From IMG/VR virus record IMGVR_UViG_3300017605_000626, positions 1-64,000 of that record: a stretch of 64,000 nucleotides of DNA; one strand, written 5' to 3'. Shown here piece by piece: positions 19,611 through 64,000 of the stretch. Under the pieces are notes generated by a model, which made no database searches, was not told the DNA's origin, and worked only from the letters and a program-made list of their open reading frames with translations. Made by a program: the position numbers and the translations under genes. This stretch comes from a virus. Lineage: Duplodnaviria > Heunggongvirae > Uroviricota > Caudoviricetes. Within the stretch, counting starts at the first letter, position 1; each line of letters opens with the position of its first letter.

Positions 19611-19766
19611 TTATAACTTCTTTTTTCTTTTGTGCCATCTAATTCTATCACATTCACGACAATCCCTAGCACCACTAGGATTTATATAGGTATTTTTCCA
19701 ATTATATTCATGCCCATTAGGGCAATGAGTTTTTGGGGAATTAAGTTTTGCAAAGTAATTAGGCAT
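19611..19766 (-). CDS. small Zn-finger / HNH-like peptide (approximately 51 aa)
   Basis: Hand translation MPNYFAKLNSPKTHCPNGHEYNWKNTYINPSGARDCRECDRIRWHKRKKEVI. TAATG overlap with the upstream gene. Confidence 0.3.
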   Translation of the reverse strand: MPNYFAKLNSPKTHCPNGHEYNWKNTYINPSGARDCRECDRIRWHKRKKKL

Positions 19767-21379: not shown

Positions 21380-21538
21380 ATAAATTCTCCAATTAAGAAT
21401 TAAATCGTTTTATTAAAACAATTAACAAAGTAATTGCCTTAATAAAACGGGCGATATCCCCGGTGATACCGCCCATTCACAAGCTATATCGCTATAGCCA
21501 ACACTAGGGCAAGTTATCCGGCATCCTAGTAAAAACGG

Positions 21539-36737: not shown

Positions 36738-37112
36738 CTATTTCTTCATTCCTCCTACATTTTCTCTAATGATATCATTCTTATTTAATTCTGTCCAGTA
36801 AATTTCATAGGCGATTGTATTATCTTCTAAAACTTCAAACATATGAGGTACTTTTGGTGGCACCGTACAATACTGTGTAGACTCTAACACAGTTTCATCT
36901 ATAAGTCCATAGCTCATCCAAGTATTTATTTTTATCTTCCCAGATTCAACAAAAAACATGTTGAACTTATTCTCATGTGAGTGTAATGAACAATATCCAC
37001 CAAGTTTTCCAACAATTCTATGAATCTCGACATTGTTTTTGTCGAACAACAATGATGTGCTACCCCAAACTTTACCCTGTACCTGCATCTTATATAAACT
37101 CCGTTGAATCAA
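36738..37112 (-). CDS. cupin-fold protein
   Basis: GGYCSLHSHENKFNMFFVESGK. Small beta-barrel size. Confidence 0.4.
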   Translation of the reverse strand: MIQRSLYKMQVQGKVWGSTSLLFDKNNVEIHRIVGKLGGYCSLHSHENKFNMFFVESGKIKINTWMSYGLIDETVLESTQYCTVPPKVPHMFEVLEDNTIAYEIYWTELNKNDIIRENVGGMKK

Positions 37113-38097
37113 AAATTGTTGCTTCTATGTGTTGCTGATCTGCTCTATCTTCAGCCCAATAATATACACAGACTAACTGGTTATCATCACGTTTGAAAAG
37201 CCTTGGATAGCCAATGTCAGAATTATTACCCTGTCTTACTATGTAATTATCCCAAGTTTTACCAAAATCAAATGATTTAGACAAATTTATGGTTCTATAA
37301 GATCTATTTGCATAAACACAAAATAAACAATTTCCTACAGAAATCAATGCTGGAGGATTACCATTATTCCCACCAGTACTAGAAACTCTAGAGGTATACT
37401 TCCATGTCTTACACTCATCTTCTGAAATAAAACAATCAATCCAACAATCACCTCTATATCTTCTACGCAAAGTAACAAATATTTTATTCTCTATTCTGGC
37501 GACTGCTGGCATTACTGCACGAAAGGCGTCACTACAAACTTGAGATATTACATTAAACTTTCCATTTTCAAGTTTAACACAAAAAGTAGAATCACTGCCC
37601 CAATGGTCTTGGTGCCGCGAAGATAAAAACACAAAATCATTTAAAACAGCAGTTCTAGACGTACAAATTAAATTGGGATCTTCAAATATATTAAATCCAT
37701 CTTTTGATTTAAAAAGAAAATATCCTTCCCAATTCTTACCATGATCAGACGAAGAATAAAAACCACCTAAAGGATCACAATCATCACCTCCAGTATCATA
37801 TGCCCCACAAACACGAATAATATTGTCTTTTAAATTGAATGACTTAGGTAGTTCATTATAAACATAGTCAGAAGCACTAAAATCTACATTGGGAACTTCT
37901 ACACTCCATGTTTCTCCCCCATCTAAACTTCTAGCTTGTACTTTCTGGTAAGGCTCTCCTATGTTGTGCATCCCTCCTTTTTCATAAGGCCCTCTCATGA
38001 AACCACAAAGAAACTCATTACCCCATTGCCAATGACCATGATTAGCAGGCCATCCCGCATACATATTTTCTTCAGAATATACAGTTACATGTTTCAT
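37090..38097 (-). CDS. BNR/Asp-box repeat protein (sialidase/glycosyl-hydrolase-like)
   Basis: Four S-x-D-x-G-x-T-W boxes: DGGETW, SDHGKNW, EDECKTW, DFGKTW. Confidence 0.6.
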   Translation of the reverse strand: MKHVTVYSEENMYAGWPANHGHWQWGNEFLCGFMRGPYEKGGMHNIGEPYQKVQARSLDGGETWSVEVPNVDFSASDYVYNELPKSFNLKDNIIRVCGAYDTGGDDCDPLGGFYSSSDHGKNWEGYFLFKSKDGFNIFEDPNLICTSRTAVLNDFVFLSSRHQDHWGSDSTFCVKLENGKFNVISQVCSDAFRAVMPAVARIENKIFVTLRRRYRGDCWIDCFISEDECKTWKYTSRVSSTGGNNGNPPALISVGNCLFCVYANRSYRTINLSKSFDFGKTWDNYIVRQGNNSDIGYPRLFKRDDNQLVCVYYWAEDRADQQHIEATIFDSTEFI

Positions 38098-44599: not shown

Positions 44600-46855
44600 C
44601 TATTCTTTAGTCCAAAAATCCTCAACATGCAGCTCACTTCTAAATGGAATGCTTTTTACATATGCATTACCTGCTCTGACCATACAATCATCAATAACTT
44701 TTAATGCTTTTTCTACATTTTGTTCCGGCACTTCAATTAATAATTCATCATATACATTATTTTCAAGGAACATTCCTAGCTCATCCATGTAATGCCAGAG
44801 AAACGGCTTACCATTTTCATCAAAACCACACCCCATTGCCATCTTAAGCATGTCACAGCCAGTGCCCTGAATCACAGCATTTTTACCCTCACGTTCTGTA
44901 GCTAAACTCATCATGAATAACTTTCTATTAATTTCTCTCTTGTATTTGGCCATGAACATCTTTCTAAATACATCATTCGCTTTGTCTTCTTTCTTAACTT
45001 TATAATCAGTCATTACTAGATTAGTGCATGTTTCAAAAGTCGGTCTAATATAGTGCCTTATCCTTCCAGCTATAGTTCTACTCATTAGAGTTTCTTTGGC
45101 AGATTTACCAGATCTTTCTAGATATTTAATAAGATTAGGAACAGCCTGATAATATGTAGTTAATAATTCTTTAGCTTCTTTTATAGAAATATTTAAATCA
45201 TCTGCTAATTTCTTTTCTGTCATTCCATAAGCAATACCAAAGTTAATAGACTTTACAGCATCCCTTAATTTCTTGTGCTCTGGGCAATCGCATTTTTTAT
45301 GATCATCAAAAAAGTAAGCACAATCATCAAGAGGCTGTCCCTTTTTATCTCCTTTATTATAAAAAAGCTTTACTCCCTCAAAAGTACCATCCTTTGCAAA
45401 ACCATTCTGCCATTTATCCTTAAACATGACTTCTGCTACTACTGAATGTACGTCCCATTCTTTATTAAACGCCTCAACCCAACTAGGTTCCTGACTAAGC
45501 TCTGTCATGATTCTCAGCTCTTGTCCAGAGAAATCAGCAGTAATCATCTTATAACCTGGTCTAGCTATAAAACATCTTCTCCATTTTGAATCTTTAGGAA
45601 TATTATAAAGATTAGGTTCGGCACAACTAGGTCGGCCAGTTCTAGCTCCAATCAATCTGAATTCAGCATGAATCCTGCCAGTTTCTTTCTTAATAGACTT
45701 TATATAAGGTTCATCGTATGTTGTAATAAGTTTATTCAACCTCCTAAATTCTTTAAGTAAAGAAATAACTTTAAACTCACTCGAAAGTAGTAATAAAGTT
45801 CTGTCTTTTGTGTCCTTTAACTTTCTGGCAGGAATTCCTGTTTTTAGCAAAGCCTCTAGTAGTTGTTTGGGGGATTCGTAGTCTAATAGAGCTAAACCCT
45901 CTGATTTACTAGCAAGCCTTGCCTTCTCATTAACTTCTCTTCTTGCTTCTTCAAACTCCTTTCTTTTAAATTTTCTCAGCTCCCTGTCTACTTCATTTCT
46001 CCATGATTCTTCTAAACCTGTTAAATCTTTCTGTACATCATCCTTTCTTCCACAAATTGGAATGAAGAATTCGTCCATTTGTGAAATAACTTTTTTCTTC
46101 TCTTCCTCTACTTCTGCCATTCTGAGCTTCCACTGGTCTTTATCCAGAAGTAACCCGTTTAGGTGCTGGTCACAGAAGGCTGGTAATGCATCACAATCGA
46201 CCTGTACTGCGTTCTTTATTCCCATCGAGGTCAATATACCTTCCTGACCTTTCATAACAGCCAGTGGCAATCTAACGTCTAATGCCGCATATAAGAATTG
46301 TTCATCAGTGAGTGGACTGGTTAAATCAAATGTCTTTTGCTGGCTTTTATCTATAATAAGACCACAATAACGAGCCACACAATCATCTAAAGCCCAGAAA
46401 TCTTTAATTGTAAAGGGAATCTGACCAGTATATATGTTCTGTTCAGCTATATAGCAATCATAAAGATTCCATAATTTAATACCTAAACACCACTTAAGTA
46501 CTGTATAATCAAAGACAGCATTAAACAAAACCTTCTTTGTTTTGTTAGTTTCCAAATACTTCTTAAGCAGGGCAACCAAATCGGCAAACTCAGGCCCGCC
46601 CTTATAATTGCCTTGTGAATTAACTAGATCTTTACTAAAGCCTAACAAGTCAATTACACACTGAGCTTCTTTATTGCCAATTTGGATTGTCCTTATTCTT
46701 CTATCGAAGAAATCTTTAGTAATGTTGCCTTCAGTATCTACAACAAACACTTCCGTTCTGGACAAAAACTCTTCCAAGAGGGGAAGTTTATCATTTGAAT
46801 CTATAAGAATTGGATTTAGCTTTGGATTTAGGTTTTCTACGTTTAATAGTTCCAT
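44600..46855 (-). CDS. family-A DNA polymerase with N-terminal 3'-5' exonuclease
   Basis: Exo I VVDTEGN. Pol A motif A ITADFSGQELRIM, motif B RDAVKSINFGIAYG, motif C VYDELLIEV. SD AAAGGAA. Confidence 0.9.
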   Translation of the reverse strand: MELLNVENLNPKLNPILIDSNDKLPLLEEFLSRTEVFVVDTEGNITKDFFDRRIRTIQIGNKEAQCVIDLLGFSKDLVNSQGNYKGGPEFADLVALLKKYLETNKTKKVLFNAVFDYTVLKWCLGIKLWNLYDCYIAEQNIYTGQIPFTIKDFWALDDCVARYCGLIIDKSQQKTFDLTSPLTDEQFLYAALDVRLPLAVMKGQEGILTSMGIKNAVQVDCDALPAFCDQHLNGLLLDKDQWKLRMAEVEEEKKKVISQMDEFFIPICGRKDDVQKDLTGLEESWRNEVDRELRKFKRKEFEEARREVNEKARLASKSEGLALLDYESPKQLLEALLKTGIPARKLKDTKDRTLLLLSSEFKVISLLKEFRRLNKLITTYDEPYIKSIKKETGRIHAEFRLIGARTGRPSCAEPNLYNIPKDSKWRRCFIARPGYKMITADFSGQELRIMTELSQEPSWVEAFNKEWDVHSVVAEVMFKDKWQNGFAKDGTFEGVKLFYNKGDKKGQPLDDCAYFFDDHKKCDCPEHKKLRDAVKSINFGIAYGMTEKKLADDLNISIKEAKELLTTYYQAVPNLIKYLERSGKSAKETLMSRTIAGRIRHYIRPTFETCTNLVMTDYKVKKEDKANDVFRKMFMAKYKREINRKLFMMSLATEREGKNAVIQGTGCDMLKMAMGCGFDENGKPFLWHYMDELGMFLENNVYDELLIEVPEQNVEKALKVIDDCMVRAGNAYVKSIPFRSELHVEDFWTKE

Positions 46856-46876: not shown

Positions 46877-46905
46877 ACTATACTACAATTTAACTTTTTT
46901 GTCAA
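46877..46905 (-). promoter_or_regulatory. sigma70 consensus promoter for the leftward (polymerase) operon
   Basis: Minus strand reads TTGACA-17nt-TATAGT, then AAAGGAA SD, then ATG. Confidence 0.6.
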
Positions 46906-46948
46906 CATGTTTATTTTTAAAAAATGTGCTAAAAAGTGAAAATAGTTC

Positions 46949-46977
46949 TTGACAAATCTTACTTTTCATGGTATAAT
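46949..46977 (+). promoter_or_regulatory. sigma70 consensus promoter (extended -10) for the rightward late block
   Basis: TTGACA-17nt-TGgTATAAT. Confidence 0.65.
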
Positions 46978-48086: not shown

Positions 48087-48743
48087 ATGCCTATTCTAGA
48101 ACCGCAACTACTTTGGCAGGAAGCTCAGGAGAAAGATAGAAAGCTAACTCCTAGTGAGCGCAGACGTGTGGTTATGTGGCTACAACACTCACACCCAGAG
48201 TTATTTAATACAGATATAGCCAGAGTGCTTGGGGTTAGTGATAAGCTTATCAGAAATGATAAAGAGCTTATCCGCAAGAAAGCCGCAGAAGAAATTAAGA
48301 ATGATAGCATAGAATTGATTATATCAGATATCATTCAGGTTTACAATAAGCAAGCTCAAGATTTAGAAAGAAGTAAACGTAAGGCGGTTTTGGGCAAGGG
48401 TGAGTACAGAATGCATTCTCTGGCAGTTGCACAGATTGAGAACATGAAGCTCAAAGCTTTACAGGATGTGGGCTGGATTCCAAAGAATCTTGGAACAGGC
48501 TTCACAGAAAGTTACAGTTATGTGGTAGATGTGGGTGAGAATGGAATGATTAAAACCCAGAAGGTTGAGCAGAAGATGGAAAAGAAAAGTAAAATTCCAA
48601 ATAAATATCTTCCTCAACTTGATTCTGTCACTAAGATAATTAGTTCTGAGCCTACAAAAGAAAATACATCAAAAGATAAAAATGAAGAAAAATTTATTTT
48701 CCAAGCAGTAATAGGTGATGATGGAGCAAAGCAAACTAGTTAA
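48087..48743 (+). CDS. putative terminase small subunit
   Basis: N-terminal HTH-like segment (DIARVLGVSDKLIRN). Position directly before TerL with overlap. Confidence 0.45.
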   Translation: MPILEPQLLWQEAQEKDRKLTPSERRRVVMWLQHSHPELFNTDIARVLGVSDKLIRNDKELIRKKAAEEIKNDSIELIISDIIQVYNKQAQDLERSKRKAVLGKGEYRMHSLAVAQIENMKLKALQDVGWIPKNLGTGFTESYSYVVDVGENGMIKTQKVEQKMEKKSKIPNKYLPQLDSVTKIISSEPTKENTSKDKNEEKFIFQAVIGDDGAKQTS

Positions 48744-50007
48744 ATTACAACTTCCAGAAATGCATCCAAAGCAGGCAGAACTTTTAATGAAGTTCTATAC
48801 TGATCCTAAAGTTAATTTTATAGTGGGGGCTACAGGAACTAAAGTTGGCAAAACTTATGGTGCTGCTATAGTAGCCACTAAATTTGCGCTGGAAAATGAA
48901 GATTCAATAGTTTGGTGGATTGCTCCTGCGTATGCTCAGGCGGAGATTGGATTAGATTATATTATTAGATTCTTGCCTAAAGAATGGAGAACTTACAATG
49001 GAACTGATCATGTTCTTAATGTTCTTAAGCCAAATGGCGAATATCACAGCAGAATTGAATTTAAAACCGCAGAAGATCCTGATAAATTAAGAGGATTTAG
49101 AGTAAATTTAATTATTGCTGATGAAATGGGTCGTATAAGAGACGCATCATATGAGTCTTTTATGACTACCAGAACACAAACAAGAGCCAAAATTATATTT
49201 TTAAGTACTCCATTTGGTCATAATAAGTTTTGGGAGTTATACAAAAAGGGAGATAAATCGAGAATAGCTGAAGGTGAGGAAGATCCTTTCCCAGAATATT
49301 TTAGTTTAAACTTACCAACTAGCTGTAATCCTTGGATATTACCAGAAGTAATTGAAGAACAGAGAAGATCATTAGATTCTGAAACTTTTAGACAAGAGTA
49401 TCTTGCCGAGTTTCTTACAGATTCTTCATCTGTGTTTGGTGATTTTAGAAGTTGTGAAAAAGGATCATTAGAGCCGCCAAAAGCCGGCACTAAATATGTA
49501 ATGGGGCTGGACTTAGCTCAGAGTCATGACTTCACTGTTATTACAGTGATGGATATAGAAAGAAGACATGTTGTATATTTTGAAAGATTTAATCAAGTTA
49601 ATTGGGAATATCAGTATCAAAGAATAATAGATGTCTTTTTGAAATATAACAAAGCAACATGTGTAATGGACGCTACAAGCCAAGGTAGCCCTATAGCAGA
49701 AACACTTATGAGAATGGGTGTTAATGTTATTCCATATAAAACTTATACTAATATTGCCAAGAGAGAATTAATTGAAGCTTTAAAAATATCTATAGATAAT
49801 AAAGCCATTTCATTTCCAAAGATTCCAGAGCTTAGAAGAGAATTAGAAGATTATGAAATGGAAAAGAAAGATTCTGGAGTTATCACTTATCATGCCCCAA
49901 GAGGAAGAAATTCTTGGGATGATTGTGTTATTAGTTTAGCTCTTGCTAACTTTCTTTTGATGGGTGATTCAGAAGGTTACAAATACTACAACATACGGGG
50001 AATTTAA
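48715..50007 (+). CDS. terminase large subunit
   Basis: Walker A GATGTKVGKT, Walker B LIIADEMG, C-terminal nuclease-like acidic residues. Confidence 0.7.
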   Translation: MMMEQSKLVKLQLPEMHPKQAELLMKFYTDPKVNFIVGATGTKVGKTYGAAIVATKFALENEDSIVWWIAPAYAQAEIGLDYIIRFLPKEWRTYNGTDHVLNVLKPNGEYHSRIEFKTAEDPDKLRGFRVNLIIADEMGRIRDASYESFMTTRTQTRAKIIFLSTPFGHNKFWELYKKGDKSRIAEGEEDPFPEYFSLNLPTSCNPWILPEVIEEQRRSLDSETFRQEYLAEFLTDSSSVFGDFRSCEKGSLEPPKAGTKYVMGLDLAQSHDFTVITVMDIERRHVVYFERFNQVNWEYQYQRIIDVFLKYNKATCVMDATSQGSPIAETLMRMGVNVIPYKTYTNIAKRELIEALKISIDNKAISFPKIPELRRELEDYEMEKKDSGVITYHAPRGRNSWDDCVISLALANFLLMGDSEGYKYYNIRGI

Positions 50008-53522: not shown

Positions 53523-55073
53523 ATGACTAAACCTGTGAAACCACCTAAACCTCCCAAGCCACCTAAACCGCCAATAGACCCAATCCCTCCAGTATCACTA
53601 GATCCTGTATTACCACAGGTATTTGTGGATACTGTTTATGCTCCACCTACAGGAAGTATTATTCATGTAGCCGCTGGTGGTAATTTACAAGCTGCTTTAA
53701 ATAATGCTCAACCAGGTTCTCGAATTACGTTGGAGAAAGGGACCACATTCTATGGTAACTTTGTTTTGCCAGCAAAGGCTGGATCTAGCTATATCTATGT
53801 AGAAACTGAAGGTTTTTCTATTCCTATAGGACAGCGTGTAGTTTCTCCTGAAGGCATGGCATCATTGTCTTCATCAAATTTCTCTCCTGTACTTCAAACT
53901 TCTTTTGGAGCGCATCACTTTAGATTCGTTGGAATTGAAATTAAAGCTCCTGGTATTTCAATTGACACTTTGATTCAATTGGGAGATGGAAGTGAAGCAC
54001 TCATTAATCAGCCACACCATATCATTTTTGATCGTTGTCATATACATGGAGATATTTCTCTTGGTGGTAAGCGCGGCGTATCTTTTCAGGGTAGTTATCT
54101 TGCGGTGATTGATTCACGACTTACTAATTGGAAACGTGTTGGTCAAGATACTCAGGCGATTGCGGGATGGAATGGTGCAGGGCCGTTTAAGATAGTTAAT
54201 AATTTTATTGAAGGTGCGGGTGAAAATGTAATGTTCGGTGGTGCGGATACTGTGGTCGCAAATCTAACTCCGAGTGATATAGAAATTAGTAAGAATCACT
54301 TCTTTAAACCATTGTCATGGAAAGTTGACGACCCGAGTTATGGTGGAGTTTTATGGACAATTAAGAATCTGTTAGAACTTAAGCACGCACAGCGAGTATT
54401 AATTTCAAATAATTTGTTAGAGAATAATTGGGGTGGGCAGGGTCAGGTAGGATTTGCAGTTGTGTTTACTGGACGTAATCAAAATGGAGCTAATCCTTGG
54501 GCGTGTGTTAATGATGTTACATTTGAATTCAATGAGCTTCGTAATTCTTCTAATGTCTTTAATCTGTTAGGACAGGATTTTGAATCCGGTGTTCCTAGTG
54601 CTATTTCTAAACGACTTAAGATTGCTAATAATATTATGACTGGAATTGGTCCAGCACCTGGAAGTGGTGTCGGCATAGCTTTCCAAGTTATGTCTGGTTA
54701 TGAGGATGTTAATGTTGATCATAATACTATGCTTCATAGTGGTGATACTATGATGCTGGATGGATTGCCTTCGCCTCGATTACGCTTTACCAATAATATA
54801 GTTCAACATAATAAATACGGAATTAAAGGTAGCGGCTTTAATTCTGGAAATCCTTCTATTGCTGCATTTTTGCCAAATTCTGTTATTACTAAGAATGTGC
54901 TTGCTACTCCAGTTGAGCAGGGTTGGGATCCATACTATCCGCCTGAAAATTATTTTCCTACAACTCTTGAAGAAGTTGGTTTTGTTGATTTGATAGGCGG
55001 GGATTTACGGTTAACTCCAGCTAGTCCTTATCATAATTTAGCTACAGACGGCACTGATATTGGGGCAATATAA
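53523..55073 (+). CDS. right-handed beta-helix (pectate-lyase-like) tailspike/depolymerase with N-terminal (KPP)n
   Basis: PKPPKPPKPPKPP. Repeated N-x-x-x-N/G beta-helix rungs (NNFIEGAGENV, SNNLLENNWGG, TNNIVQHN). Confidence 0.6.
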   Translation: MTKPVKPPKPPKPPKPPIDPIPPVSLDPVLPQVFVDTVYAPPTGSIIHVAAGGNLQAALNNAQPGSRITLEKGTTFYGNFVLPAKAGSSYIYVETEGFSIPIGQRVVSPEGMASLSSSNFSPVLQTSFGAHHFRFVGIEIKAPGISIDTLIQLGDGSEALINQPHHIIFDRCHIHGDISLGGKRGVSFQGSYLAVIDSRLTNWKRVGQDTQAIAGWNGAGPFKIVNNFIEGAGENVMFGGADTVVANLTPSDIEISKNHFFKPLSWKVDDPSYGGVLWTIKNLLELKHAQRVLISNNLLENNWGGQGQVGFAVVFTGRNQNGANPWACVNDVTFEFNELRNSSNVFNLLGQDFESGVPSAISKRLKIANNIMTGIGPAPGSGVGIAFQVMSGYEDVNVDHNTMLHSGDTMMLDGLPSPRLRFTNNIVQHNKYGIKGSGFNSGNPSIAAFLPNSVITKNVLATPVEQGWDPYYPPENYFPTTLEEVGFVDLIGGDLRLTPASPYHNLATDGTDIGAI

Positions 55074-55108: not shown

Positions 55109-58100
55109 ATGGTTAGAGGAACTATTGATATTCCACAACCTACTTCAGCAACATCTAATACGTTGTCGGTTGAAACCGCATCTAGAATATCTGCGGATAT
55201 TACTTTGTCTAATGCCATTAGTGTACTGTCTTCTTTAGTTAGTGCTAATTATTCTGCTTATCTTTCTCTTGTTGATAGAGTTTCTGCTAATAGTGCAGGC
55301 TCTGGAAGTGTAACTTCAACTGAACTTTCTGCTGTTAGTGCGGCTGCCAATACTCACATAAATACAGTTTCTTCTCAAGTAGAAACAAATTCAGCACAAA
55401 TGACTAGTGCTGATTTAGCATTGAGCAACGCAGTTAGTGCATTAAGTGCTCAATTGAGTATACAAGTTTCTGCTTTGTCACAAGTTCACAGTGTTCTTAG
55501 TGCTAATGTGGCCAGTATAAGCACAAATGTTTCTGCAATTAGTACTAGGTTATCAGCCTTATCTTCTCAAGTTTCTAGTAATTCAGCGCAAATGACTTCG
55601 GCTGATGATGCTATTTCAAATGCTTTATCAGTTGAAACAGCTAATCGAGTTTCTGCTGTTAATAGGGTGTCTCAAGCTTTATCGGCATTAGTTCTTGATT
55701 CTATAAAAGATGTTTCAGCTCCTTCCCCCTCAGATCAACAAGTTTTGGCGTGGGATTCAGCCGCTGCTAATTGGCATCCAATGTCAGTGGTAGCAGGGTC
55801 TGGTTCTGTTACTTCTAATGAATTATCAGCAGTTAGTGTAGCTGCACAATCAGCTATAGATACAGTTTCTGTTGCTCTTGCTACCCTTAGTTTAAATGTT
55901 TCTGCTATAAGCTCAAGACTGTCGGCTTTATCGGCTCAGGTTTCGTCTAATTCTGCACAGATGACCAGCGCCGACAATGCAATTTCTAATGCTGTGTCTG
56001 TCGAAACAGCAGCTCGTATTACAGCAGACAATCTGTTATCGAATGCAGTTTCAGCCTTGTCCGTTCAGCTTAGTTTACAGGTTTCAGCACTAAGCCAAGT
56101 GCATTCTGCTTTATCGGCCAATGTTGCTAGTCTCAGTTTAGACGTTTCCGCCATTAGCACACGGCTTTCAGCATTGTCAGCACAAGTCAGCACGAATAGT
56201 GCTCAAATGACCTCTGCCGATAATGCGATATCTAATGCGGTATCAGTACTTTCTGTGCAATTATCCCTTCAAGTTTCTGCATTATCTCAGGTACACAGTG
56301 CTTTATCTGCAAACGTTGCTACTCTATCATTGAATCAGTCGGCGATGAGTACGGCAATTTCAGCTTTGTCTGTTCAGTTGAGTTTGCAAGTTTCGGCTTT
56401 GAGTCAAGTAGTTTCAGCTTTATCTGCAAATGTAGCAGGAATTTCTACTAACGTTTCTGCAATTAGTACAAGATTGTCAGCACTGTCATCACAGGTCAGT
56501 TCTAATTCAGCTCAAATGACCTCTGCCGACAATGCTATTAGTAATGCAGTATCTGTACTTTCTACTCAGTTGTCTTTGCAAGTATCGGCACTTTCTCAAG
56601 TTCACAGCGCCTTGAGTGCAAACGTTGCTACAATTTCTTTGAATGCTTCGGCAATGAGTACAGCAATTTCTGTTTTAAGTAATCAAACTTCAGTTCTTAG
56701 ATTTGCTGGAAAACTCGTTACGCTTCAGAATGTAGATGGATCAGCAGTTTCTGCCGGTGCTCCAGTTTACGCATTTACTTCAGCTAATACATTTAAACGT
56801 GCTGATGCAGATGCTGCATCGCCTGCACCAAATGTATTAGGATTAGTTTACGACGCTAATATTGCAGTATCAGCACTTGGTAATGTTCAAGTAAATGGTG
56901 TTGTAACTTTGACTACGGCGCAGTGGGATAGTATTACAGGTGGTGCTAGTGGATTAACAATAGGCTCTACATACTATGCCGGAACAACGGTAGGAACACT
57001 TACTACTACTGCTGGCCAAGGTAGTGGTCGTCCTGTTGGTATTGCTTTGTCTACAACAGAAATGTTGTTGGTTATTGGTCAAATTGATGACTGGACTTCT
57101 GTTGTATCTTCTATTAGTTCACGTCTTTCTGCATTGTCGTCTCAAGTTTCTAGTAATTCAGCGCAAATGACTTCTGCTGATAATGCCATTAGCAATGCAG
57201 TGAGTGTATTAAGTACACAATTGAGTTTGCAAGTTTCGGCTTTGAGTCAAGTGCATTCGGCTCTATCAGCTAATGTGGCAACTTTGTCGTTAAATCAGTC
57301 GGCGATGAGTACGGCAATTTCAGCTTTATCAGTACAATTGTCATTACAGGTTTCTGCTTTAAGTCAGGTTCATTCTGCATTGTCTGCTAATGTGGCGACA
57401 ATAAGTTTGAATGTCTCTGCTCTTTCTACTTTAGTTTCCGCACTTTCTGTGCAACTGTCTTTGCAGGTCTCGGCACTTTCTCAAGTTCATAGTGCTTTGT
57501 CGGCAAATGTAGCTACAATTTCATTAAACGTTTCGGCAATATCTACTGCTGTTTCAAATGCTAATTCTGCTATAGTAGCCAACTCCGCACAGATGACCTC
57601 TGCCGACAATGCTATTAGTAATGCAGTATCAGTTGAAACGGCTAATAGAATTTCAGCGGTAAATAGAGTGTCTAATGCTTTATCGGCATTAGTCCTAGAT
57701 TCTATTGCAAACGTTTCTGCACCATCTCCGGGGGATCAACAAGTTTTGGCGTGGGATTCGGCTGCGGGTAATTGGCATCCTATGTCAGTCGCTGCTGGAT
57801 CTGGGTCTGTTACATCAAATGAATTGTCTACTGTTGCATCAGCCGTATCTGCTAACTCGGCTCAAATGACTTCGGCGGACAATGCGATTAGTAACGCAGT
57901 TAGTGTTCTGAGCGTTCAGTTGAGTCTGCAAGTTTCGGCTTTAAGCCAAGTTCATTCAGCATTGTCGGCCAACGTAGCGGCCATAAGTTTGAATGTTTCT
58001 GCTCTGTCTACCTTAGTCTCAGCGTTGTCTGTACAACTTAGTTTACAAGTTTCAGCATTATCTCAAGTTCATAGTGCTCTTAGCGCCAATGTTGCGGGAA

Positions 58101-60043
58101 TTTCTCTTAATGTATCAGCAATATCTACAGCGGTTTCAAATGCAAATTCGGCGATTGTGGCTAACTCCGCCCAGATGACTTCTGCTGACAATGTATTAAG
58201 TCAGCAAATATCTGTTCTTAGGTTTGCCGGTCAGTTACTTTCACTACAGAACGTGGATGCTTCGGCTTGCTCAGCCGGAACACCTGTGTATGCGTTTACC
58301 TCTGCCAACACATTTAAAAAGGCCGATGCTGACGCTGCTTCACCTGCCCCCAATGTTTTAGGTCTAGTTTATGATGCAAATATTGCTGTATCGGCTGTAG
58401 GAAATATTCAGATAGATGGTATTGTTACCCTTACTACAGCACAGTGGGACTCAATTACGAGTCAGAGTGGTGGTCTGACTATTGGATCAACTTACTATGC
58501 TGGAAGTACAGCAGGCACTTTAACAGTAACGGCTGGAGTAGGTAGTGGTCGTCCTGTTGGTATTGCTATATCGACGACTCAATTAGTTTTAACTATTAAT
58601 CAGGTTGATGATTGGACTTCTGCTGTTTCATCTATTAGTACAAGATTGTCGGCTCTATCTTCTCAGGTAAGTGCTAATAGTGCTCAAATGACTAGTGCGG
58701 ACAACGCAATTAGTAATGCAGTTAGTGTTTTGTCAGTTCAGTTGAGTTTGCAAGTTTCTGCTCTTTCTCAGGTTCATTCAGCATTGTCTGCTAACGTAGC
58801 TGCTATTAGTTTAAATGCATCGGCTATGTCTACTGCTATTAGTGCTTTATCGGTGCAATTGAGTTTGCAAGTTTCTGCTTTATCACAAGTGCATTCTGCA
58901 TTATCAGCTAATGTTGCTACGATTTCTTTGAACGCATCAGCAATGTCTACGGCAATTTCAGCTTTGTCTGTTCAGTTGAGTTTGCAAGTTTCTGCTTTAT
59001 CACAAGTTCATTCAGCTCTTTCGGCAAATGTGGCTACTATGTCACTGAATGCATCGGCCATGTCCACGGCCATATCAAATGCTAACTCTGCTATTGTTGC
59101 AAATTCTGCTCAGATGACAAGTGCTGACAATGCCATTAGTAACGCGGTTTCGGTTGAGATTGCTAATAGAATCTCTGCCGTAAATCGAGTATCTAATGCA
59201 CTGTCAGCTTTAGTATTGGATTCTGTTAAAGATGTCTCTGCACCAAGCCCTGCCGATGGCAATGTCTTAACGTGGAATTCTGCACAGGCGCAGTGGGTGG
59301 CATCGGCGGTTGCAGCAGGGACAGGGAGCGTCACATCTGCCGAACTTTCAGCCGTCAGTTTAGCAGCACAATCAGCATTATCTACTGCTGTTTCTGCCGG
59401 TGCTGTAACGGCTAATGATTTGTCAAATGCTATTTCTGCCTTGTCAGTCCAACTGTCACTTCAGGTGTCTGCGTTAAGTCAAGTACACTCAGCCCTATCT
59501 GCGAATGTTGTAACTATTAGTAACGATGTTTCTGCGATTAAGGCTGGTTTGGGTTCTCCCATGCAGATGCAGTGTATTAGTGCTGCTGGTGGATTTACAA
59601 TTCTTGCTAGTACGATGACAAACGTGACTGGTTTAACATTGTCGGTTGCGGCAGGTGGGGTTTATGAAATCCACGGTAAGGCAGTTTGGTATGCTTCTAC
59701 GACGGCAGGTGCTGGTTTTGGGATGACATTCCCGGCGACTACTTCTGCTAATGCTGCTTGGAAAATGTGGACAAACGTTTCGGTAGGTCATGCTACTGGC
59801 GCTAGTGTTTGGACTTCAACTTGGCAAGGAACGACATATTATAATGGACTTGCCGCACAATCAGGTTCAGCAATGTTGTCTGTAATTCAGGGTGCTTCAT
59901 CGCAGTCACCGTATTTATTGGAGATAGATGGTATCTTTGCTGCTAGTGCAGGAGGAACTATTCAATTACAAGCAAGAACTAGTGCAGTTAGTGCTTTGAT
60001 TTTCTCTAAGGGGTCTTTCCTAAGAGCTTTTAGAATTGTTTAA
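55109..60043 (+). CDS. giant Ser/Ala-rich tandem-repeat fibre protein (1644 aa) with two copies of an approximately 130-aa globular domain
   Basis: At least 10 repeats of the SALSSQVSSNSAQMTSADNAISNAVSVLSVQLSLQVSALSQVHSALSANVA module. Duplicated AGKLVTLQNVDGSA...GRPVGIA domain. SD AAGGAG. Confidence 0.75.
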   Translation: MVRGTIDIPQPTSATSNTLSVETASRISADITLSNAISVLSSLVSANYSAYLSLVDRVSANSAGSGSVTSTELSAVSAAANTHINTVSSQVETNSAQMTSADLALSNAVSALSAQLSIQVSALSQVHSVLSANVASISTNVSAISTRLSALSSQVSSNSAQMTSADDAISNALSVETANRVSAVNRVSQALSALVLDSIKDVSAPSPSDQQVLAWDSAAANWHPMSVVAGSGSVTSNELSAVSVAAQSAIDTVSVALATLSLNVSAISSRLSALSAQVSSNSAQMTSADNAISNAVSVETAARITADNLLSNAVSALSVQLSLQVSALSQVHSALSANVASLSLDVSAISTRLSALSAQVSTNSAQMTSADNAISNAVSVLSVQLSLQVSALSQVHSALSANVATLSLNQSAMSTAISALSVQLSLQVSALSQVVSALSANVAGISTNVSAISTRLSALSSQVSSNSAQMTSADNAISNAVSVLSTQLSLQVSALSQVHSALSANVATISLNASAMSTAISVLSNQTSVLRFAGKLVTLQNVDGSAVSAGAPVYAFTSANTFKRADADAASPAPNVLGLVYDANIAVSALGNVQVNGVVTLTTAQWDSITGGASGLTIGSTYYAGTTVGTLTTTAGQGSGRPVGIALSTTEMLLVIGQIDDWTSVVSSISSRLSALSSQVSSNSAQMTSADNAISNAVSVLSTQLSLQVSALSQVHSALSANVATLSLNQSAMSTAISALSVQLSLQVSALSQVHSALSANVATISLNVSALSTLVSALSVQLSLQVSALSQVHSALSANVATISLNVSAISTAVSNANSAIVANSAQMTSADNAISNAVSVETANRISAVNRVSNALSALVLDSIANVSAPSPGDQQVLAWDSAAGNWHPMSVAAGSGSVTSNELSTVASAVSANSAQMTSADNAISNAVSVLSVQLSLQVSALSQVHSALSANVAAISLNVSALSTLVSALSVQLSLQVSALSQVHSALSANVAGISLNVSAISTAVSNANSAIVANSAQMTSADNVLSQQISVLRFAGQLLSLQNVDASACSAGTPVYAFTSANTFKKADADAASPAPNVLGLVYDANIAVSAVGNIQIDGIVTLTTAQWDSITSQSGGLTIGSTYYAGSTAGTLTVTAGVGSGRPVGIAISTTQLVLTINQVDDWTSAVSSISTRLSALSSQVSANSAQMTSADNAISNAVSVLSVQLSLQVSALSQVHSALSANVAAISLNASAMSTAISALSVQLSLQVSALSQVHSALSANVATISLNASAMSTAISALSVQLSLQVSALSQVHSALSANVATMSLNASAMSTAISNANSAIVANSAQMTSADNAISNAVSVEIANRISAVNRVSNALSALVLDSVKDVSAPSPADGNVLTWNSAQAQWVASAVAAGTGSVTSAELSAVSLAAQSALSTAVSAGAVTANDLSNAISALSVQLSLQVSALSQVHSALSANVVTISNDVSAIKAGLGSPMQMQCISAAGGFTILASTMTNVTGLTLSVAAGGVYEIHGKAVWYASTTAGAGFGMTFPATTSANAAWKMWTNVSVGHATGASVWTSTWQGTTYYNGLAAQSGSAMLSVIQGASSQSPYLLEIDGIFAASAGGTIQLQARTSAVSALIFSKGSFLRAFRIV

Positions 60044-60062
60044 ATAAGATTGAAAGGAATTT

Positions 60063-62777
60063 TTGAAACAGATGAATGCCAAGGTAGAAAAAGTAAAACC
60101 TACTAAATTAGATATTAACGCTGTACAAAAAGTTCAATATTGTATCCCAATTTGGCTTCGTGACGAGCAGATAAAACACGCTATATCAAGGGTTAAGGGA
60201 AGAATTCAACCACATTATGAAGAAAGAACTGACAGTGTTGCAGTAGTCTGTTTTGGTCCTAGTTTATACGACACTTGGGAACAGCTAAAAGATTTTAAAT
60301 ACATAATTACTTGCTCTGGCTCTCATAAATTTTTAGTTGATCGTGATATAACACCTACTTGGCATATTGAAGTTGATCCTCGCGCACATAAGGTACAGCT
60401 TATAGGTCAGCCTAGAAAGGAAACAGAGTATTTAATTTCTTCTACGTGTCATCCTAAAGTATTTGACCATTTAGAAGGTTATAACGTTAAATTGTGGCAT
60501 GTTTTTGATGGAGAAGAAGATGCTATGAGAACTCTCCCACAGGGCGAATGGGCTTTGTTTGGTGGTTCTTCTGTAGGGTTGCGTGCATTGACGATAGCTA
60601 GGTTTTTGGGATTCAAAGACCTTCATGTTTTTGGTATGGACGGGTGTGAGGGCAAAACTGGTAAACACGCTGATAAACACCCTAATCAGCCAAAAGATTC
60701 TCAAGAATGTGAATATGGTGGGGTTGTATATAAAACAACTGCTTCAATGCTTGAATGTGCAAAACAAACTTGGCATGAATTAGATCAAATGCCAGATGTT
60801 AAAGCAACGTTTTATGGAGAGGGCTTGGTTCAGGCAATGTCTAAGAATTATATACCAAAAACTTTGCCTAAAGGTACACCTACAATTGGCTATCATAAGC
60901 AAGAATTGATTAGTCCAGAAGTTAAAGAACTTAATGCGCGATTACATAGGGAAAATTTATCTTATGGTGTTGGCGGAAAAGAACATGTAGAAATTGTAGT
61001 TAAATTAGCTGAAAGTATTAAAGCTGAAAGTATTGGTGATTATGGTTGTGGAAAAGGTCTTTTAGCTAAACATATTGGGAGACCTATATGGGAGTATGAC
61101 CCTTGTGTACCCGGCAAAGAAGAGCAATTAAGGCCAGTAGATCTTTTGGTATGTACGGATGTTTTGGAGCATGTTGAACCTGACAAACTTGCTTCTGTTT
61201 TAGATGATATGAGGAGATGTGTCAAGAGGGTTGGTTACTTTGTTATTAACACTAAACCCGCCATTAAAACGTATGCTGACGGCAGAAATACACATCTTTT
61301 AGTTAAAGATAAACATTGGTGGGAAACAGTTCTTTCTAAGTTTTTTAAGGTAGGAAAGATAGAAAATGTTGGAGGAAAACTACAAATTATTGTTGGACCA
61401 AAACCAAAAGATAAAATAGCAGAAACTTCTGTTGCAGCAGATTCTATAACTAAAGTTGGCAATGTAAGTTTTTACACTCCTAATCAAGCAACTAAATGGC
61501 GAGCTAATACATTGTTAATAAAAGAACCAATAACTATTCAGTGGATTAACAGTATGAAAGAGGGAGATGTTCTTTATGATGTTGGCGCCAACGTTGGTGG
61601 ATATACTATCTTAGCAGGGGCCAAAGGAGTTAATGTTTTTTCATTTGAGCCAGAGGCTGAAAACTATTCATTGCTTATGCGTAACATTCTTCTTAATAAC
61701 CACAAGTCTACGGCATTTTGCATGGCTATTAGTAAAGCTAGCAAGGTAGGAACTCTCAATTTAAGTCAAATTGGTGCTGGTGGTTCTTGTCATATGTTTG
61801 GTGATCCTCAAGATAAATTTATACATCAAGGTTGTTTAGCTATGTCTTTAGATGAACTATTAGCAGCCGGATTACCTCAGCCCACTCATATTAAAATAGA
61901 TGTAGATGGTTTAGAAGCAGATGTTATTCATGGTGCTACAGAAGTATTAAAAAAAGTAGATAGTATTTTAGTTGAAATTAATACGTCATTACCAAATCAT
62001 GTTGATTTAGTTAAACATTTAAAGGATAACGGTTTTACTTACAGTCAAGAACAGGTAGATGCTGCTATCAGAAAAGAGGGAAACTTTAAAGGTGTTGCGG
62101 AATTTTTATTTACTAAAGAATCTGCTCATGCCCCATCAGTTTATTCTAATGTTAGTGTCGATAGAGTGATTGCGGAAAAGATTAATAAAGCTAAAGTGAT
62201 GAAGTATCCCACACCCTATATCTTTATAGAGAACATTTTTCCTGAAGAGCTGTATCAAGACATTCTTAGCAATTTGCCGGATAACTATGTTTCTATTGAA
62301 ACGGTGCGTCAATTGAAAGGTTATAAAGAGAGGCTTGTTTCTATTCCAGAATCTTTTTTTTGGAAGGATCTAGACAGTAAACTTAGAACAGGTTTTATAA
62401 GAAATGCTCTTTGTACTAAATTTGGTGTTAGTAATGATTTCATAGATGAGACATTGTTAATTAGAGATTTGACTGGATATAAAATTGGGCCTCACACCGA
62501 CAGTTTAGCAAAAGTTATCAGTGCTTTGTTTTATCTCCCTTCAGATGAATCTCAGTTAGAAGCTGGAACTTCGCTATATTTGCCTAAAGATAAAAACTTT
62601 AGGTGTGTTGGTGGCCCACACCACAAGTTTGAATACTTTGATAAGATCACAACAGTACCATTTAAACCAAACAGCTTGTTTGCATTTTTAAAGACTGACA
62701 CATCTTTTCACGGGGTTGAATTGTATACTGGAAGTAAACCAAGAGATGTGCTTTTATACGATATTAGAAAAGGTTAA
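60063..62777 (+). CDS. four-domain fusion enzyme: DUF115/MptE-like N-domain, class-I SAM methyltransferase, FkbM methyltransferase, 2OG-Fe(II)-oxygenase-like C-domain
   Basis: VVCFGPSL..GGSSVGLRA..HVFGMDG. IGDYGCGKGLLAKH and DLLVCTDVLEHVEP. DVGANVGGYTILAG. IGPHTDS...FHGVE (H-x-D...H). Confidence 0.6.
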   Translation: MKQMNAKVEKVKPTKLDINAVQKVQYCIPIWLRDEQIKHAISRVKGRIQPHYEERTDSVAVVCFGPSLYDTWEQLKDFKYIITCSGSHKFLVDRDITPTWHIEVDPRAHKVQLIGQPRKETEYLISSTCHPKVFDHLEGYNVKLWHVFDGEEDAMRTLPQGEWALFGGSSVGLRALTIARFLGFKDLHVFGMDGCEGKTGKHADKHPNQPKDSQECEYGGVVYKTTASMLECAKQTWHELDQMPDVKATFYGEGLVQAMSKNYIPKTLPKGTPTIGYHKQELISPEVKELNARLHRENLSYGVGGKEHVEIVVKLAESIKAESIGDYGCGKGLLAKHIGRPIWEYDPCVPGKEEQLRPVDLLVCTDVLEHVEPDKLASVLDDMRRCVKRVGYFVINTKPAIKTYADGRNTHLLVKDKHWWETVLSKFFKVGKIENVGGKLQIIVGPKPKDKIAETSVAADSITKVGNVSFYTPNQATKWRANTLLIKEPITIQWINSMKEGDVLYDVGANVGGYTILAGAKGVNVFSFEPEAENYSLLMRNILLNNHKSTAFCMAISKASKVGTLNLSQIGAGGSCHMFGDPQDKFIHQGCLAMSLDELLAAGLPQPTHIKIDVDGLEADVIHGATEVLKKVDSILVEINTSLPNHVDLVKHLKDNGFTYSQEQVDAAIRKEGNFKGVAEFLFTKESAHAPSVYSNVSVDRVIAEKINKAKVMKYPTPYIFIENIFPEELYQDILSNLPDNYVSIETVRQLKGYKERLVSIPESFFWKDLDSKLRTGFIRNALCTKFGVSNDFIDETLLIRDLTGYKIGPHTDSLAKVISALFYLPSDESQLEAGTSLYLPKDKNFRCVGGPHHKFEYFDKITTVPFKPNSLFAFLKTDTSFHGVELYTGSKPRDVLLYDIRKG

Positions 62778-62785
62778 TTTATAAA

Positions 62786-63403
62786 ATGGCTTTCATTTCA
62801 ACAGAAGATTTCGACAGCTACTCCATCGCCGATGATCTCAACGGGAAAACCGGCGGAACAAACTGGAGTGACGCTTGGGCTGGAACCGTGGCAACGTGGA
62901 GCATTCAAACAGCTCCGTCCGGAGGACAAGGTGGTCTCGCGGCGAAAAATACTGTCGCTAATGACACCATGCTTAGGAATTTTACAGCTATCACGGTCGG
63001 CACTGTCAGTATCCGAATGCGTTGCAGTATTACCAACCCGAACGATTTTCTCGGGGGAGTGCTGAGAGATTCTGGGGGAACTCCCAGAATGTTTGTCAGG
63101 TTTGGGCCGACGGGGAACGTTGAAATTTACGATTCAGGTATTGCGAGCTACGTGTCGATTGTAGCCTACTCCGCAGACACATGGTACACGGTAGATATTG
63201 ACTTCGATACAGTTGCTCAGCCCAATCTGTATCGAGCGCGTGTCGATGGTGGCACTTACAGCGGCTACAAAACCGTAGATGGCGGTAGTTATGCAAACAT
63301 TCAGTGCATTCGCCTAGATGCGAGCGCAACCGGAACGCGAGACTTTTGGGTTGATGATATAAAACCTCCTAGTGAGAGGAGATGGATATTAGGACCACAT
63401 TAA
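62786..63403 (+). CDS. hypothetical beta-rich protein (205 aa), GC-rich gene
   Basis: Markedly higher GC (about 50%) than its flanks. Gly/Thr-rich. Confidence 0.45.
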   Translation: MAFISTEDFDSYSIADDLNGKTGGTNWSDAWAGTVATWSIQTAPSGGQGGLAAKNTVANDTMLRNFTAITVGTVSIRMRCSITNPNDFLGGVLRDSGGTPRMFVRFGPTGNVEIYDSGIASYVSIVAYSADTWYTVDIDFDTVAQPNLYRARVDGGTYSGYKTVDGGSYANIQCIRLDASATGTRDFWVDDIKPPSERRWILGPH

Positions 63404-63406
63404 TTA

Positions 63407-64000
63407 TGAATAGATACATTTATGTAGGACATGATCCGCGAGAGCAAGAAGCATTTAATGTGACTGAGTGTTCTATATTAAGACACAGTGATAATAATAC
63501 AGTGGTTGTTCCTTTAAAACTAAAAGAATTACGGCAATTTTTATGGCGACCAATTGAACAGAAGGATGGGAGAATGTGGTGCCCTATAAGTCAAGCCCCC
63601 ATGTCCACTGAATTTGCAATATCTCGGTTCACAGTTCCATTACTTCGTACCGGTGGTTGGGCAGTTTTTATGGATTGTGATATGTTATGTAGAGCAGATA
63701 TTAAAGAATTATTTGATATGGCTGATGATAGATATGCTGTTATGGTTGTTAAACATAAACAAGAAAATGGCTCTGTTATTAAAATGGATAACCAAGTACA
63801 GACCTTTTATTCAAGAAAGAATTGGTCTTCGGTAATACTTTGGAATTGTGCACATAAGTCAAATAGAAATCTTACTACGTATGAATTAAATACGTGGCCT
63901 GGAAGAGATTTACATGCGTTTAGATGGTTACAGGATCATGAAATTGGTGAGCTTCCACAAGAGTGGAATCATTTAGTTGGTGTTAGTCCACCTATTGAGA
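63407..64000 (+). CDS. GT8-like (nucleotide-diphospho-sugar) glycosyltransferase, N-terminal part; runs off the window end
   Basis: Not in the track because it has no stop. Hand translation MNRYIYVGHDPREQEAF...GWAVFMDCDMLCRADIKELFDM (DxD motif in GT8 context) is open to position 64000. Confidence 0.5.

Follow-up and report, generated by a model that had tools for sequence, protein, structure and literature searches.

Introduction

Glycosylation of virion proteins in phages is documented mainly for mycobacteriophages, and the phenomenon is also known from giant viruses of eukaryotes. Here we describe a locus from a tailed virus (Caudoviricetes; IMG/VR record IMGVR_UViG_3300017605_000626, positions 1 to 64,000; this whole 64,000-nt stretch is called the window) in which a four-domain enzyme is encoded directly after a long Ser/Ala/Thr-rich tail fibre and shortly before a GT8-like glycosyltransferase. 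The predicted domains and their gene neighbourhoods suggest that the phage may O-glycosylate its own fibre. For the mycobacteriophages, a review describes virion proteins as extensively glycosylated (PMC12582341, citing Freeman et al. 2023).

The closest described bacterial systems act on flagellin. PF01973, formerly DUF115, is the Maf_flag10 domain, whose topology is a modified GT-A, akin to that of GT42 sialyltransferases; N-acetylneuraminic acid (Neu5Ac) as well as Kdo (3-deoxy-D-manno-octulosonate) can be transferred to flagellin Ser/Thr by Maf enzymes, and residues 324 and 415 of the Magnetospirillum Maf are critical, as their mutation abolishes activity (preprint, bioRxiv 10.1101/2020.06.03.131540). 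FkbM-family methyltransferases and tetratricopeptide repeat (TPR)-type GT41 enzymes are recurrent in flagellin glycosylation islands of Enterobacteriaceae (PMC4875605) and Geobacillus (PMC5109656); the word "oxygenase" is mentioned in neither paper. In an open-access literature library we found no prior description of a Maf/DUF115/MptE-type enzyme linked to a phage tail fibre.

Results

Domain architecture of the enzyme

The enzyme gene is a single open reading frame (ORF) in the ORF listing of the window, with a TTG start and 904 aa (Table 1), exactly where an original prediction made from the sequence alone had placed it. Translation likely begins at the ATG at 60072 and not at the TTG at 60063, because a database protein 100% identical to it (P0001) has 901 aa and begins three codons downstream of the TTG, homologues share an N-terminus reading MNA..., and a Shine-Dalgarno-like AAAGGAA precedes the gene at 60053-60059. 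The prediction had also read four catalytic-looking modules from this ORF, and these are real: three score above the cut-offs of curated hidden Markov models (HMMs), the fourth is recognised by a structure model and by profile comparison, and key motifs are conserved. The motifs it quoted are each found a single time: IGDYGCGKGL spans residues 324-333 (nt 61032-61061), DVGANVGGYT 506-515 (nt 61578-61607), HTD 811-813 (nt 62493-62501) and FHGV 882-885 (nt 62706-62717). That these motifs might lie outside methyltransferase or double-stranded beta-helix (DSBH) folds is contradicted by the model for the oxygenase, and is made very unlikely for the methyltransferases by family matches and invariant S-adenosylmethionine (SAM) motifs. 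A single-sequence search of the PDB gave only matches with E > 0.2, and domain profiles were needed.

The N-terminal module matches PF01973 (MptE-like) over residues 54-196 with 69.2 bits, against a curated cut-off of 34.6. Only one PDB sequence is significant for its profile, the Maf protein of Magnetospirillum magneticum (5mu5, E 1.3e-6), and the match is confined to residues 265-428 of 5mu5. Key residues of the module are D105, where homologues have D or E, the stretch G167-G168-S169 and a GMDG motif, whose D193 is invariant in 60 sequences. In an HMM sequence alignment, which is not a structural superposition, Maf residue 324 aligns with D105 and residue 415 with D193, so that acidic equivalents of both critical positions are present. 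The catalytic domain with its modified GT-A, sialyltransferase-like fold is likewise recognised; the N- and C-terminal domains that flank it in Maf are missing, only ~285 residues preceding the next module, and the neighbouring gene encodes a phage fibre in place of the flagellin and cytidine monophosphate (CMP)-nonulosonic-acid biosynthesis genes expected of a Maf locus. By these sequence features module 1 resembles the Maf catalytic domain, and the protein is not a canonical Maf. Its viral relatives in UniProt and BFVD carry automatic names only ("MptE-like pterin diphosphokinase" or "uncharacterized"), and the enzyme family is abundant, uncharacterised and probably mis-annotated in public databases as "pterin kinase-like".

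Two predicted methyltransferases follow. The first (MT1) matches PF13489 (Methyltransf_23) over residues 323-397 (34.9 bits, curated cut-off 27) and phrog_24759 (E 1.6e-18). Its invariant residues include motif I, DYGCGKG (D326, G328, G330), the acidic D346 and a CTDVLEH motif (D366, E369, H370), and it has the Rossmann-like motif I (D/ExGxGxG) and the acidic residue after strand 2 that mark a class-I SAM-dependent methyltransferase. The second scores above curated cut-offs for the FkbM family (PF05050, 41.5 bits against 22.7; TIGR01444, 73.9 bits against 37.7) and matches phrog_8156 (E 5.6e-21). Besides the DVGAxxG SAM motif typical of that family, seen here as DVGANVGGY (D506, G508, G512), it conserves FEPE (E529, P530) and KIDVDGxE (D613, D615, G616, E618), and D506, G508, G512, E529, D613 and D615 are invariant. 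Compared with the PDB, the profiles of both methyltransferase modules find generic SAM-binding motifs only (Trm5, precorrin methylases, HEN1), and are silent on substrate.

The C-terminal module is a predicted 2-oxoglutarate (2OG)/Fe(II) oxygenase (Oxy in the architectures below). It scores 16.3 bits to PF13640 (2OG-FeII_Oxy_3), below the cut-off of 27, and so falls outside that Pfam family; Pfam recognises few of its homologues (P0046, P0119), and the module represents a divergent subfamily. Because of the sub-threshold score, residues 693-904 were modelled from an alignment of 32 homologues, and the model shows a DSBH fold with a mean predicted local distance difference test (pLDDT) score of 95.2. 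The iron-binding facial triad H811-x-D813...H883 is present together with R894, a basic residue placed to bind 2OG, and all four residues are invariant in 60 homologues. A profile of the module matches the sequence of PolD with E 1e-7, the HxD motif and the distal His being aligned.

Linkage to a tail fibre gene

The gene directly upstream encodes a repetitive protein of 1644 aa composed largely of Ser (20.6%), Ala (17.5%) and Thr (7.1%), with little Pro (1.3%) or Lys (0.6%). Two near-identical globular inserts of ~130 aa, LRFAG(K/Q)L...VYAFTSANTFK(R/K)ADADAASPAPNVLGLVYD..., lie amid long Ser/Ala heptad-like repeats, and the protein closes with a conserved C-terminal domain that ends ...GSFLRAFRIV. 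In the phage database it matches only proteins of Xanthomonas phages BUDD and X1 (39-44% identity), and these matches are to the second insert. Five other loci, with enzymes 47-56% identical to that of the window, have a fibre homologue directly upstream of the enzyme; these fibres are 25-38% identical to that of the window, agree with it in composition and share the C-terminal ...GSF(L/I)RA(Y/F)RI. Those of L002 and L084 begin with Pfam Mtd_N (37.6 and 41.8 bits, cut-off 26.3), a domain of tail-fibre and receptor-binding proteins, and in one related locus a tail-collar protein is encoded upstream as well.

The link extends across the family. Among non-redundant IMG/VR loci, a gene with the fibre C-terminal domain stands directly upstream of 12 of 13 four-domain genes, and upstream of all 13 is a gene whose product has 300 aa or more and an S+A+T content of 35% or higher, compared with a background of 17% of such long genes. 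The fibre is also present in 27 of 32 loci with the shorter Maf-MT1 enzyme, so the link survives a change of enzyme architecture. A broader set of 85 viral loci (80 from an IMG/VR scan with the N-terminal domain and five further ones) was annotated with domain profiles, and gene clustering found only three families widely shared among them: the enzyme, in 84 loci, the fibre, in 65, and a GT8-like protein of ~240 aa, in 41. This tight linkage to a Ser/Ala/Thr-rich fibre gene, which is absent from the original prediction, is the strongest signal in the data, and it points to a protein substrate. Homology of the fibre to flagellin is not supported: a flagellin probe misses the phage fibres, and the likeness is one of composition only.

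In the window itself the order fibre, enzyme, 205-aa ORF, GT8-like gene is directly seen, with gaps of 19, 8 and 2 nt between successive genes. A consensus scan found no convincing terminator between the fibre, the enzyme and the downstream genes, and these likely share one transcript. They belong to a + strand block that starts beyond a divergent intergenic region near 46.9 kb and runs through the terminase, several unannotated genes, a 516-aa protein, the 1644-aa fibre, the enzyme and the 205-aa ORF to an ORF that leaves the end of the window.

The GT8-like partner and its sugar-chemistry setting

The GT8-like gene is the most conserved enzyme partner in phages and bacteria alike. The copy in the window, which the ORF listing lacks as it runs past the end, begins MNRYIYVGHDPRE... 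and matches a profile of the bacterial partners with E 8.3e-61; against Pfam Glyco_transf_8 this partial sequence reaches 19.7 bits (E 6.9e-4), below the cut-off. Ten of 11 GT8-like family members match Glyco_transf_8 (best E 8.7e-7), one of them above the cut-off (28.7 bits against 24.3), and the family profile finds the GT8 domain of WbbM in the PDB weakly (E 0.0087). One related locus (L086) has GT2, GT6/GT11/GT7C and Stealth genes within the enzyme locus. The original prediction had the modules acting in sequence on a nucleotide-sugar, for instance by methylation and hydroxylation. Its sugar setting is supported by the GT8-like gene two genes downstream, by fusions to GT2 domains in the family and by the glycosyltransferase genes of L086; its nucleotide-sugar as substrate is not, the fibre linkage pointing to a protein.

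A reduced cassette, a GT8-like gene plus MT1, occurs among the tail genes of cultured Caulobacter phages, CcrPW and relatives. In CcrPW (L167; MH588545, record positions 103607-116104) it lies just after a putative tail protein gene; there gp136 is GT8-like (E 1.8e-60) and gp137 matches MT1 (E 2.6e-43), while a Maf-like match of gp133 is weak and partial (E 8.6e-6). The deposited annotation calls gp137 an "FkbM family methyltransferase", yet its match is to MT1 rather than to FkbM.

Elsewhere in the window, at 37090-38097 on the - strand, lies a gene for a 335-aa protein with BNR/Asp-box repeats, which scores 30.5 bits to BNR_2 (cut-off 31.4) and gives weak PDB matches to sialidases. This sialidase-like protein could, on faint grounds, be related to the same sugar chemistry as the sialyltransferase-like domain of the enzyme.

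A widespread modular family

When a database of 5.8 billion proteins was searched with the enzyme, 473 matches were found at E up to 1e-5. The best 120 of these are all long, multi-domain proteins with 45-100% identity, nearly all of them aligned over 97% or more of the query. With more than 120 full-length homologues in metagenomes, the possibility of an assembly or frameshift artefact was rejected. An exhaustive profile search with the N-terminal domain gave 2813 cluster representatives at E < 1e-3. The fusion, which the original prediction called unusual, turns out to be one architecture of a widespread modular family that is split in other phages and in bacteria. Over the 85 viral loci, the architectures are Maf-MT1 (40 genes), Maf alone (22), Maf-MT1-FkbM-Oxy (15), Maf-MT1-FkbM (12), Maf-MT1-MT1 (3) and Maf-MT1-Oxy (2). 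In 12 of the loci the oxygenase has a gene of its own, of ~237 aa, and phages with Maf-MT1-FkbM carry the oxygenase as a separate gene in the same locus. In L142 this gene overlaps the 3' end of the Maf-MT1-FkbM gene, an arrangement that resembles the four-domain fusion in split form. Other members fuse the N-terminal domain to two GT2 glycosyltransferase domains (P0124), to a methyltransferase and GT2 (P0125) or to TylF-like methyltransferases. Judged by domain content, the four-domain gene is the fullest version of a modular tailoring enzyme.

Inteins with LAGLIDADG endonucleases, which are unusual in a phage tailoring enzyme, interrupt four homologues (P0044, P0087, P0125 and P0160). Inteins are typically inserted in functionally critical motifs. 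The intein of P0044 splits GG|SSVGLR of the Maf-like domain and that of P0087 splits DYG|CGKG, SAM motif I of MT1, which marks both motifs as critical.

Two related loci are peculiar in other ways. The 44-kb podovirus Podoviridae sp. ctDrO704 (L001; MW202512) carries FkbM and oxygenase genes between the large terminase and the portal; they are 37% identical to enzyme residues 439-901, there is no Maf-like domain, and the deposited annotation covers the region partly. A 14-kb contig binned as a Candidatus Saccharibacteria metagenome-assembled genome (L004) encodes a fibre C-terminal domain, Maf-MT1 and a GT8-like domain, the latter two in overlapping frames that suggest a fusion or a frameshift; it is probably a phage contig that was mis-binned.

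Bacterial counterparts

Bacterial relatives were found in at least 432 places in a scan of one genome per species, most of them from Betaproteobacteria, Burkholderiales included, some from Alphaproteobacteria and one from Synechococcus. Neighbourhoods were counted in 79 of these loci with 10-kb flanks, and a homologous cassette is directly observed there. Most loci have FkbM and oxygenase genes that are adjacent or overlap, often with MT1 next door. The two are a single protein in L010, L013, L016, L044 and L062, among others, and MT1, FkbM and the oxygenase form one protein in L005-L008. The GT8-like partner, the same as that of the phages, is present in 14 of 79 loci. No Maf-like domain was found within 10 kb of the bacterial loci. 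A TPR protein, often in two copies, is a partner in 33 of 79 according to neighbour clustering. By analogy, it may be a glycosyltransferase, the resemblance to FlmG- and GT41-type enzymes being one of architecture only.

A flagellar setting is clear in three loci. In L044 the genes run FliK, FliG, FliF, FliS, a SIS+CBS protein, FkbM-Oxy, MT1, GT8-like, a TPR protein, two flagellins, FlaG and FliD, and in L009 and L012 the cassette stands beside a 1618-aa flagellin. A role in flagellin glycosylation is thereby suggested for a few bacterial loci and would be an extrapolation for the rest.

The SIS+CBS gene of L044 (8821-9882, + strand), directly upstream of FkbM-Oxy, has the architecture of KdsD/KpsF-type arabinose-5-phosphate isomerases. 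It hints at a Kdo-type sugar in this single locus, as a lead and not as evidence. In L012 the side of the cassette away from the flagellin holds a gene for a 2414-aa protein (14367-21608, - strand) with 76 ALTTAQ repeats and 44% S+A+T, possibly another substrate.

Proposed function and alternatives

We propose that the cassette O-glycosylates the phage's own fibre and tailors the resulting glycan, a reading that we hold at slightly better than even chances. It draws on a transferase-type N-terminal domain with conserved catalytic acids; on a pair of SAM methyltransferases plus an oxygenase, fused in some loci, split in others and shuffled as one unit, in a Rosetta-stone pattern; on a conserved partner predicted to be a GT-A glycosyltransferase; and on adjacency to a long Ser/Thr-rich filament protein, the fibre in phages and flagellin in some bacteria. 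In the cytoplasm, the ~901-aa enzyme and its GT8-like partner would build and tailor an O-linked glycan on the Ser/Ala/Thr-rich fibre before or during virion assembly. The Maf-like domain would transfer a sugar onto fibre Ser/Thr residues, from a host-made activated donor that we guess to be, most plausibly, a CMP-ulosonic or nonulosonic acid such as CMP-Kdo, as with Maf. CMP-Kdo is available in any Gram-negative host. The GT8-like partner would add a hexose, the two methyltransferase modules would methylate the sugar and the oxygenase would hydroxylate or otherwise oxidise it; methylation and oxidation could come before or after transfer. Gain and loss of FkbM, oxygenase, GT2 and TylF-like modules would diversify the glycan, as in flagellin glycosylation islands and O-antigen loci.

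In a wider form the proposal would hold that tailed phages, whose hosts would be uncultured and probably Gram-negative, O-glycosylate their receptor-binding fibres by a flagellin-type (Maf-like) route, and that the sugar is methylated and oxidised by modules exchanged with bacterial flagellar glycosylation islands. The outcome would be a variable, lineage-specific "glycan coat" that might affect adsorption, stability or recognition. This generalisation is tentative, and we put it at somewhat less than even chances.

Other readings of the same genes place the chemistry elsewhere. The modules might belong to a purely soluble pathway, acting sequentially on a free nucleotide-sugar or small metabolite, with the MptE-like domain serving as a kinase or pyrophosphokinase and the product used elsewhere or by the GT8-like enzyme; given a fibre linkage that points to a protein substrate, we consider this unlikely. 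Remodelling of the host surface, by which the enzyme and its GT8-like partner would modify flagellin, lipopolysaccharide, capsule or pili, for example to block superinfection or to release progeny from receptors, would suit the homologues that lie in bacterial flagellar clusters or beside flagellins, as well as the action of Maf enzymes on flagellin, and phage-encoded glycosyltransferases that modify surfaces are well known. The gene nevertheless sits inside the terminase/fibre block and, in many loci, in close linkage with the fibre gene, with no membrane-associated flippase or bactoprenol-type components among its conserved partners, and neither an integrase nor a lysogeny module came to light among the scanned ORFs of the partly annotated window; remodelling seems to us distinctly improbable.

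The fibre could also be the substrate without being glycosylated by the enzyme, if the oxygenase hydroxylated its residues in the manner of prolyl, lysyl or asparaginyl hydroxylases, the methyltransferases methylated side chains and the Maf-like domain mainly bound the substrate. A fibre so poor in Pro and Lys, a conserved glycosyltransferase partner, GT2 fusions in the family and a Maf-like domain that retains its catalytic acidic residues speak against such direct side-chain chemistry, and its chances appear to be just as slim as those of host-surface remodelling. A methyltransferase, an oxygenase and a glycosyltransferase together bear a superficial resemblance to phage pathways that convert 5-methylcytosine (5mC) to 5-hydroxymethylcytosine (5hmC) and glycosyl-5hmC. 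Hypermodification of phage DNA bases, as in TET/JBP-type phage systems, was rejected because both the oxygenase and the methyltransferases are of the wrong subfamilies and the genomic context is wrong, and we judge it extremely improbable.

Several points weigh against fibre glycosylation itself. It rests on sequence and context, and the glycan, the donor and the acceptor are all predicted. No gene for nucleotide-sugar or CMP-sugar synthesis was found among the conserved partners or the ten large early-region ORFs that were scanned, and with no sugar-activation gene the donor would have to be host-made, which is an assumption. The nearest relatives of the oxygenase include both a small-molecule enzyme, PolD of nucleoside-antibiotic biosynthesis, and the protein hydroxylases OGFOD1, Tpa1 and P4H, and with relatives so mixed the fold is silent on what is oxidised. 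The fibre-linked loci may represent one broad phage lineage, in which case the adjacency would partly be inherited synteny. Late expression of the enzyme gene, which the original prediction took for granted, would follow from its position only, namely the + strand block that it shares with the large terminase and the fibre gene. On the bacterial side, just 3 of 79 loci have flagellin at a distance of 10 kb or less, and the C-terminal domain of the TPR partner (~290 aa) has no Pfam, NCBIfam or PDB-sequence match and could be assigned to no glycosyltransferase family.

Other features of the window

The window has no close reference genome. Its DNA matched none of 50,697 phage records, its proteins match phage proteins only in part, and its large terminase is at most 40% identical to that of any cultured phage, a distance that also leaves it without a host assignment. 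The ORF of 205 aa that separates the enzyme from the GT8-like gene (Table 1) has no PHROG, Pfam or NCBIfam match and no homologue in the 85 related viral loci; the content of this slot differs among them. The 516-aa protein upstream of the fibre, also without PHROG or Pfam match, seems beta-helix-like, to judge from its sequence, and may be a depolymerase. Phage homologues of adenylosuccinate synthetase (PurA), known as PurZ, can mark genomes with 2-aminoadenine (Z-base); the PurA homologue of the window, which also encodes a family-A DNA polymerase, may or may not be such a PurZ.

The divergent intergenic region at 46877-46977, between the DNA polymerase on the - strand and the terminase/fibre block on the + strand, matches the sigma-70 consensus perfectly at 46949-46977 (+), with TTGACA-17-TATAAT and an upstream TG, and in 11 of 12 positions at 46905-46877 (-). 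The GC skew changes sign in the same region. Between ~20000 and 28000 the G+C content is 0.40-0.44, compared with 0.31-0.37 elsewhere, and this part is full of short - strand ORFs and gives no Rfam matches.

Table 1. Positions of the enzyme gene, its modules, its neighbours and other features in the window.
Feature	Position	Strand	Remarks
Four-domain enzyme gene	60063..62777	+	Probable true start ATG 60072, giving 901 aa
Module 1 (residues 1-285)	60063..60917	+	Maf-like / MptE-like PF01973 (former DUF115), sialyltransferase-like fold, putative glycosyltransferase
Module 2, MT1 (residues 286-450)	60918..61412	+	Predicted class-I SAM-dependent methyltransferase (Methyltransf_23)
Module 3 (residues 468-690)	61464..62132	+	Predicted FkbM-family methyltransferase
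Module 4 (residues 693-904)	62139..62774	+	Predicted 2OG/Fe(II) oxygenase, DSBH fold
Tail-fibre protein, proposed substrate	55109..60043	+	1644 aa, Ser/Ala/Thr-rich, repetitive
205-aa ORF	62786..63403	+	Between enzyme and GT8-like gene
GT8-like glycosyltransferase gene	63406..64000	+	Runs past the window end; predicted GT-A, DxD in FMDCDML
516-aa protein	53523-55073	+	N-terminal KPVKPPKPPKPPKPP proline-lysine repeat
Large terminase	48715-50007	+	In the same + strand block as fibre and enzyme
Family-A DNA polymerase	44600-46855	-	Before the divergent intergenic region
Adenylosuccinate synthetase (PurA) homologue	3791-5140	-	Pfam 4.3e-43; best PDB match bacterial PurA, E 3e-21
ATP-grasp protein, R2K clade	5364-6140	-	Pfam R2K_3, 2.7e-18
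tRNA-Lys (TTT)	3335-3413	-	ARAGORN and Rfam
tRNA-Arg (TCT)	3709-3785	-	ARAGORN and Rfam
tRNA-Leu (TAA)	9954-10042	-	ARAGORN and Rfam

Implications and comparison with known systems

If the fibre is decorated as proposed, a post-translational layer would be added to the determination of host range and to phage stability, and the widespread family now labelled "pterin kinase-like" would be accounted for. The DUF115/Maf fold would gain a new activity context, and gene exchange would connect phage fibre modules with bacterial flagellar glycosylation islands. For glyco-engineering, the family would be a source of transferase, methyltransferase and oxygenase units that are fused by nature. Direct tests of the idea are possible, and Caulobacter phages, CcrPW and its relatives, could serve as an experimental model.

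Compared with Maf, the phage module corresponds to the central catalytic domain alone, without Maf's flanking domains and fused instead to three tailoring enzymes; no nonulosonic-acid biosynthesis genes are seen beside the phage enzyme, and the neighbouring fibre has no detectable homology to flagellin. Flagellin glycosylation islands (PMC4875605, PMC5109656) are alike in that homologues of MT1, FkbM, the oxygenase and the GT8-like protein occur with a TPR protein at the flagellin loci L044, L009 and L012; the phage version has a fused Maf-like domain in place of the TPR protein and adjoins a tail fibre. Mimivirus L230 (PDB 6ax6) is a fusion of lysyl hydroxylase and glycosyltransferase whose oxygenase makes hydroxylysine that is then glycosylated, whereas the fibre of the window is almost without Lys or Pro and the glycosyltransferase fold differs. 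The oxygenase PolD (polyoxin pathway, 9blq) and the orthosomycin oxygenases, among them EvdMO1 (6ec3), which is fused to a methyltransferase, work on antibiotic intermediates of actinomycetes, as PasI (9ei7) may too, and with only 8-18% identity their substrates cannot be transferred to module 4.

The chlorovirus protein PBCV-1 A064R is a three-domain fusion of two rhamnosyltransferases and a methyltransferase that builds the glycan of the capsid protein. It resembles the phage enzyme as a virus-encoded fusion of transferase and SAM methyltransferase whose cytoplasmic target, proposed or shown, is a structural protein of the virus itself; it differs in belonging to a virus of eukaryotes, in its other glycosyltransferase folds, in lacking an oxygenase and in making an N-linked glycan on a capsid protein. 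The mycobacteriophage systems reportedly employ conventional phage-encoded glycosyltransferases that target capsid and tail-tube subunits in actinobacterial hosts, and are said to involve neither a Maf-like domain nor a 2OG oxygenase. Virus-encoded glycosylation of a structural protein is already known as a kind, and the form proposed here is not categorically new; if the proposal is true, it would be the first phage fibre-glycosylation system of this kind, joining a Maf-like domain to methyltransferases and an oxygenase beside a tail fibre.

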